A DNA stretch of 64,000 bases, taken from NCBI GenBank assembly GCA_002344135.1, contig DDTO01000008.1, forward strand, positions 88,566-152,565, in the 5' to 3' direction. This document shows positions 27,060 to 33,142 of the stretch, one piece after another. The notes beneath the pieces were generated by a model, which searched no databases, was not told where the DNA came from, and saw only the letters and a list, made by a program, of their open reading frames with translations. The stretch's first letter is position 1. The number at the start of each line of letters is the position of its first letter. The position numbers were made by a program, and so were the translations under genes. Origin of the DNA: Chthonomonas sp. UBA2362 (lineage in GTDB: Bacteria > Armatimonadota > Fimbriimonadia > Fimbriimonadales > Fimbriimonadaceae).

Positions 27060-27926
27060 CTACCCGACGAGGCTCAAGCGACCCATCGGAGGGGCAGCCA
27101 TGTGGCCGGCGAGCTCGGCAGCCGAGGAAAGCGGCTCGGCGCCCAGGGCGAGCAGGGCCCTTGCGGCCGGGCAGCCGGAATCGGGCCGCACGAGGACGCG
27201 CGCCCGTCGGCGCAATGCTCCGACCGCGCCATGCCACGTCCCCCCCTCGCGGAAACGAGCGCGAACCACGACGGTAGCGTCGGCAAGCGAGTAGATGACG
27301 GCGTTGCGCTCCATCGCCCGCCGAGGCGAGAAAGGCTCATCCCAGGCACAAAGCGACAAGGCGCAAGCCCCACCGAGGCGCGTGGCAAAGCGCAGCCCCG
27401 ACGGGAAGATCTCCGCGATCCCCCCGCCGATCGCGGCGACCGAACGCGCCGCCGCACGGTCGGCCCCGATCGCACCGCCGCTCACGAGGGCGAAACCGGC
27501 AGCCGCCGCCGACTCCGCCACCGCCGCGGCAAAGCGACGATCCTCTGCGGAGAGCCGTCGCGAGCCGACCACCCCGACGAACGGCCCGCAAGGCATCTCT
27601 CCACGACAATTGAGCGCGGCCGGCCCCCCGGCCCCCATCGCCAGCCAGCGAGCGGGATAGGCGGGAGAGGCCGCCGTGAGGACCCGTCCGCGCGAGAACT
27701 CTGCCTCCGCCCAGGCCACCCGTCCCGGCGTCTCGAGGACCAGAGCCTCGGCCCAGAGACCTGCCTGCCGCAGAATCGACGCGGCCTCCCCGAGGCGGGC
27801 GTCGCGCAGACGCAGCAGCGAGAGCACCGCAGGCCACCGGCGCGGGAGCGAGCCGACCGGGGGACCGCCTGCCAGATAGAGCGCGGCCAGCGCGATCTCG
27901 CCGACCGGCCACTGAACACTTACCAT
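27060..27926 (-). CDS. dprA: DprA-like DNA-processing protein
   Basis: VGVVGSRRLSAEDRRFA...ALVSGGAIGADRAAARS...FSPRRAMERNAVIYSLADATVVVRA follows the DprA Rossmann-domain pattern (VGSR, SG.A.G.D, F..RNR.I..L). The start is either ATG 27926 or ATG 27947. Confidence 0.65.
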   Translation of the reverse strand: MVSVQWPVGEIALAALYLAGGPPVGSLPRRWPAVLSLLRLRDARLGEAASILRQAGLWAEALVLETPGRVAWAEAEFSRGRVLTAASPAYPARWLAMGAGGPAALNCRGEMPCGPFVGVVGSRRLSAEDRRFAAAVAESAAAAGFALVSGGAIGADRAAARSVAAIGGGIAEIFPSGLRFATRLGGACALSLCAWDEPFSPRRAMERNAVIYSLADATVVVRARFREGGTWHGAVGALRRRARVLVRPDSGCPAARALLALGAEPLSSAAELAGHMAAPPMGRLSLVG

Positions 27927-27933
27927 GCACTGT

Positions 27934-27939
27934 ATTATA
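27934..27939 (-). promoter_or_regulatory. perfect TATAAT box upstream of dprA-like gene
   Basis: The minus strand reads ...GACATGTATAATACAGTGC-ATG(27926), with the -10 hexamer only 7 nt from the ATG. If used, it would give a leaderless or near-leaderless mRNA. No convincing -35. Confidence 0.3.
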
Positions 27940-28014
27940 CATGTCATCTACTCGCCAGGGGCTCTGCAGAAGTGCGCCCGGACCATACACAATGGCGATC
28001 CCGGATCAAGGAAA

Positions 28015-31000
28015 ATGCTCAAACACCCCGCCCTGACCAAGGCCCGGATCAAGCAGTTCATCGATCACGAGCTGGCCGAACACATCATCGGCGAGCGTGT
28101 TCCCCTCGACATCGAGTTCTGCCCGAAGGCCCATCCCACCGAGCAAGAGGCTCGCCAGCAAGGTCCCTGGAAGCCTGCGAAGATCGGATTTCGCTACGGT
28201 CCGGCCTACCGGGAAGTCTGGTTTCGGCTGACCGGCCGCGTCCCCGCCCGCTGGAAAGGCCTCAAGGTCGGGATCGTCGCCGAACTTGGTGGCGAGCGAA
28301 CCGCCTGGATCAAGAACGTGCCCTTCCACGGGATCGACGAGCCGCATGCCGTGATGCCCTTCCTCAAGGAGGCCGGAGGCAACGAGAAGGTCGATCTGGC
28401 GATCCAAGCCTACACCCGCAATCCGCAGTGTCGCGTCCATCGACGCGAGCTTCCCCGTGAGGAACTCGTCGAGGAGGTCAAGGAAGCCAGCCTCGTCGTC
28501 GTCGACGGCGCCCTCAAGGCCCTCTACTACGACTGCGCGTTCGCCTACGATCTGATGGAAGCCACCGGCGAGGCCGACCCGGCGCACGCGACGATCCTCC
28601 GCGCGCTCAACGATTGCTGTAACCTCTTTGCCACCGGGCGGCCCGATGCCATCGAGCGCAGCCGCAAGGTTATTCGAGACGCCCTCGGCAGCCTCAACGG
28701 CGAGCTCAAGCACTCCTTGACCGCGGTCGGGCACGCTCACCTCGATACCGCCTGGCTGTGGCCGCTGCGGATCACGCGCCTCAAGATGGCGCACACCACG
28801 GCCACCCAGCTCCAGCTCATCGAGCGGTACCCGGAGTACGTCTTCGTCCACTCCCAGGCCAGCCAATACGAGTGGCTCGAAAAGCAGTACCCCACCCTCC
28901 TCCGTCGTGTGAAGCAAGCCATCGCCAAGGGACAGTGGGAAGTCGTCGGCTCGATGTGGGTCGAGGCGGACTGCAACCTCACCGGCGGCGAGTCCCTCGT
29001 GCGGCAATTCCTCTATGGAAGGCGCTACTTCCAAAAGCACCTCGGCGTCACGACCGAGGACATGTGGCTGCCCGACGTGTTCGGCTACTCCGCAGCGCTC
29101 CCCCAGATCCTCTACAAGTTCGGCATCCGGTACTTCCTCACCCAAAAGATCAGCTGGAACCAGTTCAACAAGTTCCCCCACCACACCTTCTGGTGGCAGG
29201 GCATCGACGGCACCAAAGTCTGGACCCACTTCCCGCCCGCGGACACGTACTGCGGCTCCTCCGAGCCCAAGGAGATTCTCCGCGCCGTCGAGAACTATCG
29301 CGACCACGCCCGGAGCGACGCCTCGCTCTACGTCTTCGGCTACGGGGACGGCGGAGGCGGCCCGACCGAGAAGCACATCGAGTTCCTCAAGCGGGCTCGG
29401 CTCGCGCCGAACCTCCCCGACGTCGTCCTCGGGCGCAAGGCCGTCGACTTCTTCCGCGAGGCCCGCGCCAAGAGCCGAGACCTCCTTACCTGGGTCGGCG
29501 AGCTGTACTTCGAGTTGCACCGGGGCACCTATACGAGCCAGGCCGCCAACAAGAAGGCCAATCGAGAGACCGAGTTCCTCATGCGCGATGCCGAATGGCT
29601 CTCCTGCTTCCGCGACGACTTCCCCGGCGCCTATCCCGCCGACTCGCTCGAGGAGGCATGGAAGCTGGTCCTCCTCAACCAGTTCCACGACATCATCCCC
29701 GGGTCGTCGGTGAACGAGGTTTATCGCGACAGCGACGCCGATTACGACCGCGTCCGCCAGATGGGGGGCGAGATCGTGCGCGAAGGCCTCCACCGCATCG
29801 CCCGCGTCCTCGACAGCGAGGGCATGAAGCGCCCGGTCGCCCTCTTCCAGAACGCCACGATCCCCGGACAAGGCGAGATCGCCTGGAACGAAGACGAGGC
29901 GCCCTCCTCACTCGTCTGCGGCGAGACCAACGTCGCCGTCCAGGTGGTCGAAGATGGCTTCGGAAGGCGCCTCGTCTTCGAGGTCCCCCAGGAAGCCCTC
30001 GGCGCGGTGGCCGTCGCAGACCTGAGCGACCAGCCGCCCTCGACCCGAAAGCGCCTCAAGGCCGGCAACCGCCGCATCGAGAACGGCGACTTCTCCGTCC
30101 GGTTCGACCCACACGGCAACATCTCGAGCATCACCAGCCTCGACGACCGGCCCGTGGAGTTCATCGAGCCCGGCAAGCTCGCCAACGTCTTCCAGATCTT
30201 CGACGACAAGCCGCTCTTCTGGAGCGCGTGGGACCTCGACGTCTTCGCATACGAGACCAAGAAGGATCTCGTCAAGTCCGAGTCCTTCGAGATCGTCGAG
30301 AGGGGCCCCGTCCGCGTCGCCGCCGAGATCGTGAAGACCTTCGGCGCCAGCACCATCCGCCAGCGCATCAGCCTCGGCCCGACACCCGGCATACGGTTCG
30401 ACACCGAGATCGACTGGCACGAGGAGGACAAGCTACTCAAGGTCGCCTTCCCCGTCAACGTCAACTCACCCAAGGCAACCTACGAGATCCAGTTCGGCAA
30501 CGTCGAGCGACCCACCCACATGAACACGTCCTGGGACATGGCACGCTTCGAGGTCTGCGCACAGAAGTGGGCCGACCTCAGCGAAGGCGGGCACGGCGTC
30601 GCACTCCTCAACGACGGCAAGTACGGACACGACATTCACGGCAACGTCATGCGCCTCTCCCTCCTCCGAGCCCCGAAAGCGCCCGATCCACACTGCGACA
30701 TGGGCATACACCGCTTCACCTACGTCCTCTTGCCCCACTTCGACCAGATACAGCACGCCGACGTCGTCGCCGCGGCCTACGCCGTTAACGCACCGCTCCG
30801 ATGGGCCTTCATCGAGCCCTCGCCCGGGCAGGAAGGAGAGTTGCCCCGCTTCGTCGGAGTCGAGAACAGGAACCTCGTCGTCGAGGCCGTTAAGAAAGCA
30901 GAGGACTCGAGCAACCTCGTCGTCCGGCTCTACGAGTGTCATAACACCCGCGGCACCGCCGAGCTGACTTGCGCCCGCCCCGTCCGCGCCGCCTGGCTCG

Positions 31001-31104
31001 CCGACCTCAACGAGCGCCCCATCAAAGACCTCGAGATCATCGACGGCCTCGTCGTCTTCGACTTCAAGCCCTTCGAGATCGTCACCATCCTCTTGCAGGT
31101 GTAG
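28015..31104 (+). CDS. glycoside hydrolase family 38 alpha-mannosidase
   Basis: ATG 28015 after AAGGAAA. VGHAHLDTAWLWP, WLPDVFGYS, YGDGGGGP, ELHRGTYTSQ, NQFHDIIPGSS. These are GH38 catalytic-domain signatures. 1029 aa. Confidence 0.9.
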   Translation: MLKHPALTKARIKQFIDHELAEHIIGERVPLDIEFCPKAHPTEQEARQQGPWKPAKIGFRYGPAYREVWFRLTGRVPARWKGLKVGIVAELGGERTAWIKNVPFHGIDEPHAVMPFLKEAGGNEKVDLAIQAYTRNPQCRVHRRELPREELVEEVKEASLVVVDGALKALYYDCAFAYDLMEATGEADPAHATILRALNDCCNLFATGRPDAIERSRKVIRDALGSLNGELKHSLTAVGHAHLDTAWLWPLRITRLKMAHTTATQLQLIERYPEYVFVHSQASQYEWLEKQYPTLLRRVKQAIAKGQWEVVGSMWVEADCNLTGGESLVRQFLYGRRYFQKHLGVTTEDMWLPDVFGYSAALPQILYKFGIRYFLTQKISWNQFNKFPHHTFWWQGIDGTKVWTHFPPADTYCGSSEPKEILRAVENYRDHARSDASLYVFGYGDGGGGPTEKHIEFLKRARLAPNLPDVVLGRKAVDFFREARAKSRDLLTWVGELYFELHRGTYTSQAANKKANRETEFLMRDAEWLSCFRDDFPGAYPADSLEEAWKLVLLNQFHDIIPGSSVNEVYRDSDADYDRVRQMGGEIVREGLHRIARVLDSEGMKRPVALFQNATIPGQGEIAWNEDEAPSSLVCGETNVAVQVVEDGFGRRLVFEVPQEALGAVAVADLSDQPPSTRKRLKAGNRRIENGDFSVRFDPHGNISSITSLDDRPVEFIEPGKLANVFQIFDDKPLFWSAWDLDVFAYETKKDLVKSESFEIVERGPVRVAAEIVKTFGASTIRQRISLGPTPGIRFDTEIDWHEEDKLLKVAFPVNVNSPKATYEIQFGNVERPTHMNTSWDMARFEVCAQKWADLSEGGHGVALLNDGKYGHDIHGNVMRLSLLRAPKAPDPHCDMGIHRFTYVLLPHFDQIQHADVVAAAYAVNAPLRWAFIEPSPGQEGELPRFVGVENRNLVVEAVKKAEDSSNLVVRLYECHNTRGTAELTCARPVRAAWLADLNERPIKDLEIIDGLVVFDFKPFEIVTILLQV

Positions 31105-31189
31105 CTCGAGCGCCGGCGACAGGCCACCGGGCGCCCTCCCCCCGGCAGCACGGTCTCTCCCTGCGGCCGCGGGATCTCTCCCTGCGGTC

Positions 31190-31399
31190 GAGATGACAGA
31201 GAGAAGCGGCGAGATGACAGAGAGAAGCGGCGAGATGACAGAGAGAAGCGGCGAGATGACAGGGAGGAAGGGCGAGAGGACAGTGAGGAGGGGAGAGGTG
31301 ACAGGGAGGACGGGCGAGGGAACAGGGAGGACGGGCGAGGGAACAGGGAGGTCTGGGGAGGAAACAGGGAGGAGGGGCGAGGAGGCAAAGAAGGAGGTC
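31190..31399. repeat. tandem array 1: 10 units of 21 bp (GAGATGACAGAGAGAAGCGGC, 3 perfect then degenerating)
   Basis: Units start at 31190, 31211, 31232 (identical), then 31253, 31274, 31295, 31316, 31337, 31358, 31379 with progressive divergence and no indels. Confidence 0.95.
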
Positions 31400-31480
31400 G
31401 TGAACGACACGACTCCTCCACCGGTCACTTGCAAACGGATAACGAACCCAACGACGCCTCTGCCGCTCACCTAGAAAGCA

Positions 31481-31963
31481 CCAACGCGCACAATGACTAC
31501 CCCAAAGGATACCGGGACTGCCCCATCGCACGCCCAGACGCCTCCATCGCACGCCAGGCCAGCTCCATCGCCCGCTAGGACTGCACCATCGCACGCTGGG
31601 AGTCCTACATAGCACGCCGGTCCTGCTCCATCGCACGCTGTGACTGCGCCTGCGGTCACTGGGAGTCCGGCATACAACGCCAGGACTGCTCCATCGAACG
31701 CTCAGAGTCCGACATAGAACGCCGGGACGGTTCCAGCATACGCTTGGAGTGCGCAATCGCACGCTGGTACTACGCCCGCGCACACCTCGACCGCGTCAAT
31801 GCACGCTGAGACTGCGTCATCGTACACTGTGCCTGCAGCATCGCTTGCTCCGTCTACTACCAAGCACGACTTTATCGCACCGAATCAGCAGGTATCCGCG
31901 TCATCGCCCGCATCAGCAACGACATTGGACACAAAATCGCCAACAATGCGCACCAAATCGGCT
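31481..31963. repeat. tandem array 2: about 23 units of 21 bp with core CCATCGCACGC
   Basis: Core recurs at 31523, 31544, 31565, 31586, 31607, 31628 ... 31943 with exact 21-bp spacing. The flanking units (31481, 31502 and those beyond 31860) are degenerate. No indels break the phase. Confidence 0.9.
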
Positions 31964-32368
31964 AGGTTGCGAAATGGCGTTAAGGCATCGCAGACCAGGT
32001 AAAGCAAAGAAGCATAGACTAGCTGTCTATTAGCGTGCGTTGGGAATGAGCTGGCGATCGTGGGGCCAGCTCTTGGACCCGATAGGGCAAGACCTTGGTT
32101 CGATGCGGCGGCATTGGTGCCGTTTGCGACGCCCAGAGCGTTCTTGGTCATGGCAGCTGCAAGCGACGTCTGTTAAGCGGCGATCGTCGTAGCAGGAGCG
32201 GTAGCTAGTGGAGCAGAAGGGGTGTGCCATGGGCTGCAGTGGGCGAGCGCGGAGGGACGAAATGGATGCGCTGAAACAAGAGCCGTAGTCGCCAAGCCTC
32301 TCGGAGCGAGCGGTGGGGCGGTCCAACGAGACGCTGACACTCCGCCTGGCAGAGGTGGCGCCTCGGGA

Positions 32369-33142
32369 TTAGGCGCGGCGCATGTCCACGGTCTCTTTGG
32401 AGAAGCCGAGGCGCTCGTAGAAGGCGTGCTGGTACGTGAAGAGGAAGACGTTGGCGCCTGGGGCCTCTTCCCGGATCATGTCGAGGCCTTCCTGCATCAT
32501 GGCGGACCCGATCCGGCGGGCTTGCCACTCGGGGACGACGGCGACGTCCCAGAAGCTGAACCATCCGGGTGCGTCGCGGACGATGCGGAGGATGCCGATG
32601 GTCTCGCCGTCCGGTGAGCAGGCAACGACGCCGCCCCACGTGGTCTCGAGGAGGCCTGGGGTGTCTTTTGTGTACCCGAAGGCGCGGCCGCCGACGTCGA
32701 CGTACTCTGCGGCGGAGGGGAGACGGCGCTCGATGACGACGCCCTCGGGAAATGGCTGGGACCGCGGGGGACTGCCGGAGGGTGGCCCGGCAAAGCGGAG
32801 GTGGTAGCCGTCGAGATCCTCCACGACGTACTCTCGCGCGCCCCAGGGCATGTCTGCGATGTCGGCGACGATGCGCGCGCCGCTGGCGCGGTGGCGGGCG
32901 TAGAGGGCGTCGGCGTCGTCGATCTTGATCCAATGCTGATGTCCGCGCACGGCCTTGGCCAGTTCGGGCTGGAGGTTGAACATGATGGTCACGCCGCCCA
33001 GCGCTACGGACCCGAAGGACGGCGGTTCGCCCCAGGTCCAGGACGATTCGAAGCCGAGAACGTCCTTGTAGTGGCCGATGGTGGCTTCGATGTCGGACGA
33101 AGCGAAGATGGCGGTGGAACTGATCACGCCGGGCGGCCTCAT
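32369..33142 (-). CDS. VOC (glyoxalase/bleomycin-resistance fold) - GNAT acetyltransferase fusion protein
   Basis: The N-terminal half (HYKDVLGFESSW...MPWGAREYVVEDLDGYHLRF) looks VOC-like. The C-terminal half (VAVVPEWQARRIGSAMMQEGL...AFYERLGF) has GNAT motif A. Confidence 0.75.
   Translation of the reverse strand: MRPPGVISSTAIFASSDIEATIGHYKDVLGFESSWTWGEPPSFGSVALGGVTIMFNLQPELAKAVRGHQHWIKIDDADALYARHRASGARIVADIADMPWGAREYVVEDLDGYHLRFAGPPSGSPPRSQPFPEGVVIERRLPSAAEYVDVGGRAFGYTKDTPGLLETTWGGVVACSPDGETIGILRIVRDAPGWFSFWDVAVVPEWQARRIGSAMMQEGLDMIREEAPGANVFLFTYQHAFYERLGFSKETVDMRRA

Follow-up and report, generated by a model that had tools for sequence, protein, structure and literature searches.

The gap between the GH38 and the glyoxalase-fold/GNAT genes

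The 64,000 nt of DNA analysed here (hereafter the window) are part of the chromosome of Chthonomonas sp. UBA2362 (assembly GCA_002344135.1, contig DDTO01000008.1, positions 88,566 to 152,565 of the forward strand) and contain a tandem array of 21-bp units, termed array 2, which is the subject of this study. The source genome (G000) comprises 3.24 Mb in 11 contigs, is 99.7% complete and was derived from bioreactor sludge; the contig that contains the window (C6) is chromosomal and carries housekeeping genes. Array 2 lies within a gene-free gap of 1264 bp (31105-32368) between two convergent genes. The left flank is a gene for a GH38 alpha-mannosidase (27925..31104, plus strand; Pfam GH38 N, middle and C domains, E = 3e-89), which was employed as the control gene, and the right flank is a gene for a glyoxalase-fold/GNAT fusion protein (32369..33142, minus strand).

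Array 2 comprises a well-preserved body (31460..31858) of 19 in-phase units with the consensus CCATCGCACGCTGGGACTGCG, followed by a decayed right tail (31859..32005) with seven unit slots in the same phase. The remaining right part of the gap (32006..32368) is non-repeat, non-coding DNA with stop codons in all six frames. On its left side, array 2 is preceded by a spacer (31397..31459), which contains a hairpin with a 6-bp stem (31397-31413) that resembles a terminator on the minus strand, and by array 1 (31187..31396), likewise an array of 21-bp units, the purine-rich unit of which is unrelated to that of array 2; array 1 has a young left edge and varies between strains. In addition, Tandem Repeats Finder (TRF) reports a short third array of 21-bp units (31136..31186; about 2.5 units, CTCCCTGCGG...).

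Array 2 retains a single 21-bp phase over about 26 units

The original prediction described about 23 phased units between positions 31481 and 31963. The autocorrelation of this interval was 0.565 at lag 21, 0.553 at lag 42 and 0.574 at lag 63, whereas the top value at any lag in 1000 shuffles of the interval was 0.356, indicating that the 21-bp periodicity is real. Likewise, TRF returned rows of period 21, 42 and 63 over positions 31512-31744. The units were scored with a weight matrix built solely from two sister arrays located elsewhere in the genome (see below). With this matrix, out-of-phase positions yielded a mean of -14.2 and a 99th percentile of -0.1, and the in-phase units from 31460 to 31858 were all positive (+4 to +20). 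In the right tail, four of the seven slots scored positive, namely those at 31901 (+3.4), 31922 (+0.9), 31943 (+5.8) and 31985 (+8.5). In total, array 2 contains about 26 units, about 20 good and about 6 decayed ones (to 32005), which share one phase and show about 98 mismatches to the consensus and not a single insertion or deletion (indel). The proposed phased array was thus recovered, but it extends slightly past both of the proposed ends (31460-32005).

The proposed recurrence of a conserved core every 21 bp applies to the phase of the units, but not to the exact word: CCATCGCACGC is present at 31523, 31544, 31586 and 31628 only, and the other units contain degenerate forms. Across the array, conservation amounts to about 73% in the first 11 columns and about 60% in the last 10. 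The latter part of the unit, which had been compared to a variable spacer, has a consensus of its own (TGGGACTGCG), and this likeness is therefore not upheld. In agreement with the earlier assessment that the array does not represent clustered regularly interspaced short palindromic repeats (CRISPR), the units are contiguous and lack unique spacers, in contrast to CRISPR repeats of about 23-55 bp, which alternate with unique spacers of similar length, and the flanking genes described above are not cas genes.

Array 2 is identical in two independent assemblies and is present in contigs of more than 15 independent runs, some of them with strain variants. An artefact of assembly with k = 21 was rejected, since the units are only 60-75% alike, are located inside long contigs and were reproduced by assemblers operating with k = 31 and k = 127. 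Internal matches within array 2 are offset by 105 and 168 bp, corresponding to 5 and 8 units, which points to growth by whole units. A heptamer period was not found in array 2, as the autocorrelation at lags of 7 and 14 bp is at background.

Array 2 is non-coding

Stop codons occur in all six frames of array 2, with 2, 2 and 4 stops in the three plus-strand frames, in line with the original prediction. Codon-usage scores did not exceed 0.03 per codon in any frame of array 2, array 1 or the non-repeat part of the gap, as compared to 0.22 +/- 0.06 in genes; those of array 2 and of the non-repeat part were negative in all six frames. The autocorrelation at lags 3, 6 and 9 is raised to 0.32-0.36 in genes of this genome versus a level of about 0.25, and this rise is absent in array 2, where even lags exceed odd lags because the core itself alternates (CGCACGC). 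None of the five candidate open reading frames (ORFs) of the gap has a Pfam match at E <= 0.1, and the gene callers of two independent assemblies called nothing over array 2. When the three arrays of the same unit family were pooled, each frame contained 5-12 stops per 385 codons.

The strain data used here and below are contigs of more than 15 public runs, most of which are near-identical to the window; runs X25 and X33 represent a more distant strain. A codon-position signal among substitutions, which the original prediction regarded as favouring coding, was not significant in array 2 (9, 11 and 18 substitutions by phase, as a tally). The frame with the most silent strain differences shows 15 synonymous versus 12 non-synonymous changes, because all of its third positions are fourfold degenerate. 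In the non-repeat part of the gap, 19-33% of the strain differences are synonymous in every frame.

The original prediction further pointed to two TGA codons in a frame encoding A-C-D-G heptads and took them as signs of decay. Both TGA codons were confirmed in this frame, which is read on the minus strand. Under this reading, array 2 would be a decayed or strain-variable gene for a Cys-rich heptad-repeat protein (A-C-D-G-A-V-P), and the reference strain would carry a pseudogene. Strain X25 indeed has sense codons at both sites: the TGA at 31702..31704 (minus strand) is TCA (Ser) in X25 and X33 owing to the substitution 31703 C>G, and the TGA at 31885..31887 (minus strand), which occupies a Cys position, is TGC (Cys) in X25 owing to 31885 T>G. 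Moreover, the ACDG frame is fully open over the sister array at C5:97878-98171, and translation from an ATG at 32151 would span 226 codons. However, X25 contains a new stop upstream in this very frame (QLVY -> QLV*), and three stops interrupt it in the sister array at C5:877403-877760. The strain differences in the ACDG frame comprise 3 synonymous and 24 non-synonymous changes, with the second codon positions being the most changed; its per-codon scores lie between -0.03 and -0.05, and the G+C content at third codon positions (GC3) is 0.55 versus 0.77 in genes. Correspondingly, when both TGA codons are read through, a search of 5.8 billion proteins with the resulting 226-residue product gave no hit at E <= 0.01, and the product lacks a Pfam match. 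Decay of a heptad gene is therefore not supported; this reading is largely refuted already and scarcely credible. The codon changes in X25 are read as drift rather than as an intact allele. Selenocysteine insertion or another type of recoding at the Cys-position TGA was set aside, since none of the coding tests speaks for this frame and X25 combines its TGC with the new upstream stop. Taken together, the stops, the codon scores, and the synonymous and non-synonymous counts rule out coding in any frame, without a homologue or Pfam match to suggest otherwise, and array 2 is non-coding.

The 21-bp period dominates the intergenic tandem arrays of the genome

Comparison of the gap with its own genome by the basic local alignment search tool (BLAST) revealed two further arrays of the array 2 unit family, and all three loci are intergenic. 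One sister array (G000 C5:877403-877760) is in the opposite orientation and comprises 17 units, the other (G000 C5:97878-98171) 14 units; both are degenerate, in phase and free of indels. The consensus units of the three-locus family are CCATCGCACGCTGGGACTGC(G/T), ACATCGCACGCCCAGAGCGCG and TCATAGCACGCCGGGAGAGCG. When the whole gap was compared with the genome (word size 9, E <= 1), similarity to the sisters ended at the array edges, and a common leader, tail or inverted ends were not detected. Nor do the three loci share a gene context, their neighbour genes being unrelated. As a single site elsewhere in the genome, the core word is not enriched (17 found versus 12 expected).

The 21-bp unit length extends beyond this family. 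In a whole-genome TRF analysis, period 21 accounts for 59 of the 213 rows, far above every other period. In a further scan, which used rough gene calls, all lags between 4 and 69 were examined for stretches of 120 bp with at least 62% matches. Lag 21 yielded 17 loci, 13 of which lie outside the gene calls; multiples of 21 aside, no other lag exceeded 4 loci, nearly all of them in genes. With intergenic DNA only (395 kb), lag 21 yielded 17-19 loci and other non-multiples of 21 at most 6; one of the runner-up lags with 6 loci corresponds to a known family of 83-bp hairpin elements. The suggestion that the 21-bp period is special thus proved correct, as it is dominant among the intergenic tandem arrays of the whole genome.

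Some unit pairs from different arrays are related at 15-19 of 21 positions, with the 99th percentile of the null distribution being 14. At the same time, at least eight unit families are mutually without detectable similarity and share the one period. The arrays are found in convergent, divergent and co-directional gaps alike. A composition of the 21-bp unit from three heptamers or two half-units was rejected, since there is no signal at lags 7, 14, 10 and 11; the mean autocorrelation at lags 7 and 14 is 0.25 each, which equals background, and is at background in 16 of 17 arrays. A locking of tandem repeats to a 21-bp period in prokaryotes was not described in any paper retrieved by full-text searches.

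Several of the other arrays have features of their own. Four contain a palindrome of the GGAA-N3-TTCC type in each unit (GGAAAGCTTCC or GGAAGCATTCC; C8:50555-50684, C8:122693-122758, C8:340330-340393 and C10:15665-15735). Some of their units are interrelated, and by their sequence they seem to resemble dimer-binding sites more than array 2 does. Another family (CGGAATTCCGTCGTGACTGGA) is present at C5:626253-626422 and C8:502071-502309, where each unit comprises a CCGTC..GACGG palindrome and GAATTC, and the arrays are 74-85% alike.

The 21-bp arrays in relatives

A BLAST comparison of the gap with 40 relatives revealed no detectable DNA match. In a second species of the same genus (G001), the GH38 protein is 74% identical, and a minus-strand ORF follows directly after the GH38 gene, so that there is neither a gap nor an array at this place. 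In 1.0 Mb of G001, three lag-21 loci were present, and no more than two at any lag other than the multiples of 21. Two of the four unit families of G001 match families of G000, at 17 of 21 and 15 of 21 positions, respectively. One locus of G001 (C71:35296-35631, corresponding to L038:15296-15631) contains two different 21-bp arrays of 6 and 10 units, arranged head to tail and in one phase, like arrays 1 and 2. One of its two unit families matches the G000 array at C5:585194 at 17/21, yet adjoins the orthologue of C4:96990-98243. The sole locus checked is non-orthologous, which means that at least one family resides at different places in the two species.

Samples of 400 kb each from G009, G012 and G039, which represent two other genera of the family and one other family of the order, contained no lag-21 arrays; at the array density of G000, the estimated chance of such a result is about 0.12 per sample and about 0.002 for all three. 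A search for the exact two-core pattern in one genome per species of 185,579 GTDB species returned 38 scattered single matches, which look like chance. The 21-bp excess extends across genome and genus, and the class of arrays locked to 21 bp appears to be limited to this genus within the family.

Strain comparison of array 2

Relative to the reference, X25 carries 36 substitutions in the 483 positions of array 2 (7.5%). The right-hand non-repeat part of the gap has 27 differences in 356 positions, and the spacer has 4 in 84. The GH38 gene shows 16 differences (about 1.3% over 29868-31104), 14 of which are synonymous third-position changes. These counts indicate that array 2 and the whole gap change at or somewhat above the neutral rate. 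Within array 2, a tally assigns 21 substitutions to the 11 core columns and 17 to the other 10, the strain comparison of core and rest being shallow. Eight of the changes in X25 are clustered within 25 bp (31651-31675) and lead mostly towards the consensus, so that this cluster looks like a gene-conversion tract.

From the strict phase retained despite heavy substitution, the original prediction had concluded that the period is under selection. The neighbouring non-repeat DNA, however, is equally devoid of indels (27 substitutions, 0 indels), and X25 shows about 67 substitutions across the gap without a small indel. Thus, the roughly 98 indel-free mismatches of array 2 do not call for selection on the phase. 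None of the runs compared revealed a change in copy number, a gap or a joint in array 2, and the length of the gap is equal in two assemblies of the same strain.

We also observed that the differences between X25 and the reference in the GH38 gene are all located to the right of 29868, with none in 28772-29867, and that divergence stays high through the gap. The divergence over 29868-32305 may hence stem from a single tract imported by recombination, and not from rapid change at this place.

Origin of array 2 and of the 21-bp period

On balance, we lean towards the view that array 2 is an old, non-expanding and non-coding minisatellite of 21-bp units that resembles satellite DNA, is subject to neutral drift and probably lacks a function, and that it belongs to array families which disperse and diverge. 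We infer that the period was inherited by descent and that array 2 is functionless. According to this scenario, array 2 would serve no sequence-specific cellular function. Arrays would grow through the duplication of single whole units or of multi-unit blocks; occasional in-register gene conversion would patch them, and otherwise they would decay through point substitution. Their phase would persist because small indels are rare in the lineage, and not by selection. The period of 21 bp would be fixed at the birth of an array or during its spread, for which we prefer descent combined with dispersal of fast-diverging families; a molecular ruler of two helical turns would be a possible alternative source of the period.

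Several points weigh against this view. Dispersal requires a means to move arrays, and none was found; as stated above, the sister arrays share no leader, tail or inverted ends. The ratio of 0 indels to about 67 substitutions between strains is itself low for bacterial non-coding DNA. Moreover, the conservation of columns among the 49 units of the three loci is very uneven, with column 11, for instance, being C in 47 of 49 units. This unevenness exceeds the prediction of uniform neutral decay and could reflect a constraint that is invisible to the shallow strain comparison. Finally, a transcript of array 2 may have a role.

The main alternative to satellite-type evolution is a two-turn ruler or a binder that depends on spacing. 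A ruler specific to the lineage, in the form of an enzyme of replication, repair or recombination or of an architectural protein, would make or preserve arrays of 21 bp irrespective of their sequence, with array 2 as one of its old products. The at least eight dissimilar families with one period, to which no lag from 4 to 89 other than the multiples of 21 comes near, are consistent with such a ruler, as is the lack of 7-, 10- and 11-bp sub-periods, by which 21 bp would be the primary length. In addition, the trait is present in both sampled species of the genus and absent from the samples of three other genera, although the latter comprise only 400 kb each, with the chance of finding no array given above. 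However, no candidate gene was identified, and clear relationships link some families between loci and between species, so that common descent explains part of the pattern. We consider a ruler of this kind unlikely as the origin of array 2. The broader proposition that at least one genus of the Fimbriimonadaceae possesses a sequence-independent ruler of two helical turns is put forward tentatively and has a slightly better standing. Such a ruler would populate tolerant intergenic gaps with arrays of any sequence, and array 2 would be one of its old, abandoned products. It could be enzymatic and produce duplications of 21 bp, or it could be an architectural protein by which arrays of exactly this period are stabilised. 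A protein bound to each unit, by comparison, appears improbable. Array 2 would then be a phased binding array similar to iterons, with a putative site in every unit (core CATCGCACGC) placed two helical turns apart on one face of the DNA, and might act as a loading site for a nucleoid protein, as a partition or boundary element, or as a decoy. The exact spacing of 21 bp (2 x 10.5) over about 26 units agrees with this possibility; so do the core, which is the best-conserved part of the unit at three independent loci, the conserved columns, which alternate (2, 3, 4, 6, 8, 10, 11) in a manner that is not codon-like, and the short palindromes per unit in several other families, for example GGAA-N3-TTCC. 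Nevertheless, strain changes affect the core and the rest equally (21 versus 17) and at a rate not below the synonymous rate of GH38, isolated copies of the core word are not enriched, none of the three loci adjoins a Rep, Par or DNA-binding gene, and at least eight unrelated unit families would each require a binder of their own. The units are also no more bent than shuffles.

At the level of RNA, the left end of array 2 together with the spacer (about 31364-31600) would give rise to a small transcript or regulatory RNA, perhaps on the minus strand with the hairpin 31413-31397 as its end. Four runs labelled as RNA (X26, X30, X28 and X29) each contain a contig over about 31364-31609; in X30, the depth of this contig is 33x as compared to 16x for the GH38 piece, and the fragment ends in adapter sequence. 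The terminator-like hairpin on the minus strand would fit such a transcript. However, these runs were chosen for words from the same stretch, which introduces a selection bias, and the chance of 4 in about 7 overlapping fragments is roughly estimated at 0.1. The library labels are ambiguous (source 'METAGENOMIC'), the contigs are strandless, and the raw-read run X39 yielded no reads. The hairpin itself is doubtful as a terminator because the substitution 31409 A>T breaks its stem in most other strains. Furthermore, array 2 folds worse than its shuffles on both strands (z = +1.54 and +0.73), and the sole Rfam match over the array and the gap, to STnc390 (18.5 bits, E = 0.73), is at chance level. 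A small transcript thus seems very unlikely, and a structured RNA was rejected on account of the folding and Rfam results. Searches for transfer RNA and transfer-messenger RNA genes found none, and those for promoter and terminator consensus sequences yielded only two weak hairpins on the minus strand.

Intrinsic curvature as a selected property was likewise rejected. In a wedge model, the bend of 18 units did not exceed that of their shuffles (mean percentile 0.42), and nothing unusual was seen in the total twist; this result is indicative only. The notion of a decoy for restriction sites was dismissed, since GAATTC, AAGCTT and CGATCG occur in some units but are not scarce in the genome, with about 1% of these sites located in the arrays. 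A replication origin or terminus was rejected as well, because the switch in GC skew at 31-32 kb is only about 10 kb wide and was put down to the composition of the converging neighbour genes.

Taken alone, array 2 is ordinary; its significance lies in the near-universal 21-bp unit of the intergenic tandem repeats in a genome of 3.2 Mb. If a ruler or a requirement for helical phase were to hold true, bacterial chromosome biology would gain a new element. If the pattern merely reflects descent of satellite families, it would provide a clean bacterial case of satellite-type concerted evolution. In either case, arrays of this type should not be annotated as genes, and they are candidate strain markers.

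Comparison with known repeat systems

Iterons are direct repeats of 17-22 bp at the origins of plasmids and phages, which are spaced about two helical turns apart and number about 3-10. They adjoin an initiator gene and an AT-rich unwinding region, and their conservation is due to protein binding. Array 2 likewise consists of direct repeats with a conserved core in exact 21-bp phase over its roughly 26 units. In contrast to iterons, the loci of its family are without a rep or par gene or origin features nearby, and array 2 changes at a neutral rate, its core as often as the rest in the shallow strain comparison; moreover, more than 17 chromosomal loci with differing sequences are found here.

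Bacterial variable number tandem repeats (VNTRs), such as the mycobacterial interspersed repetitive units (MIRUs), are intergenic head-to-tail repeats that gain and lose units and whose unit length varies by locus. Head-to-tail units of 10-100 bp are common to both, and array 1 shows a strain difference of two units; however, one length of 21 bp dominates the present genome, and the copy number of array 2 is constant in the runs compared. In eukaryotic satellite DNA, arrays evolve in concert, as described by the 'library' model. As in satellites, the unit length is constant while the sequence turns over, and a consensus per array, decayed edges, multi-unit duplications and conversion patches are found. 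Unlike satellites, the arrays measure 0.15-0.55 kb, occur singly between bacterial genes and are neither centromeric nor heterochromatic. The short tandemly repeated repetitive (STRR) sequences of cyanobacteria and the long simple-sequence repeats (LSSRs) of Mrazek et al. 2007 reportedly display an excess of heptanucleotides in prokaryotes. Here, too, one repeat length is in unexplained excess in non-coding bacterial DNA, and 21 equals 3 x 7, but the 21-bp units lack a sub-period of 7 or 14 bp.

BrickBuilt of Porphyromonas gingivalis, a single family of minisatellite/miniature inverted-repeat transposable elements (MITEs) with units of 23 nt described by Klein et al. (2015, PMC4596501), is similar in its spacer-less tandem units of about two helical turns, which are always located between genes, and in that one unit family occupies many loci of a genome. 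BrickBuilt differs by its conserved leader and tail subunits and its inverted-repeat ends, none of which are shared by the sister arrays, and by its one family of period 23, as opposed to many unrelated families of period 21 in the present genome. According to Schoelmerich et al. (2023, PMC9879509), the tandem repeats of archaeal Borgs are perfect, A-rich and variable in unit length, and between genes the unit length is a multiple of three in only 14-38% of them. They are comparable to the 21-bp arrays as pervasive, fast-evolving tandem repeats that are specific to a genome type and in many cases intergenic; in contrast, the arrays described here are GC-rich, keep to a unit of 21 bp and vary in identity between near-perfect and 60%.

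Array 1 and other repeats

Together with the 80 bp that precede it, array 1 is the most strain-variable part of the gap, with at least 13 differences in 31106-31225. The contigs of X12 and X25 skip 42 bp, i.e., two units, between 31321 and 31364. These differences and skips indicate that array 1, unlike array 2, is an active VNTR. The public annotation of the Joint Genome Institute (JGI) places an ORF of 93 amino acids with MTERSGE heptads over array 1 (31193-31474); it is without a Pfam match, its codon score is near zero, and it is probably a false gene call.

Some 21-bp arrays are bordered by other repeats. A dispersed element of about 30 nt, probably a hairpin (AAGCGCGGTC.AGCCCGCGCACTCCA-like), is present at C1:11200-11229, C10:58886-58915 and more than 50 other places, and abuts two of the arrays. 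Likewise, a GGGGGA...TCCCCC hairpin element of 60-65 nt abuts the arrays at C5:707504-707866 and C8:501860-502030. The genome-wide TRF analysis also revealed a CRISPR-like array in G000 at C2:68886-69401, which has a period of 72-73 and the repeat GTTTCAATCCGCACCCACCCGCGCGGGTGGGTGAGAC.

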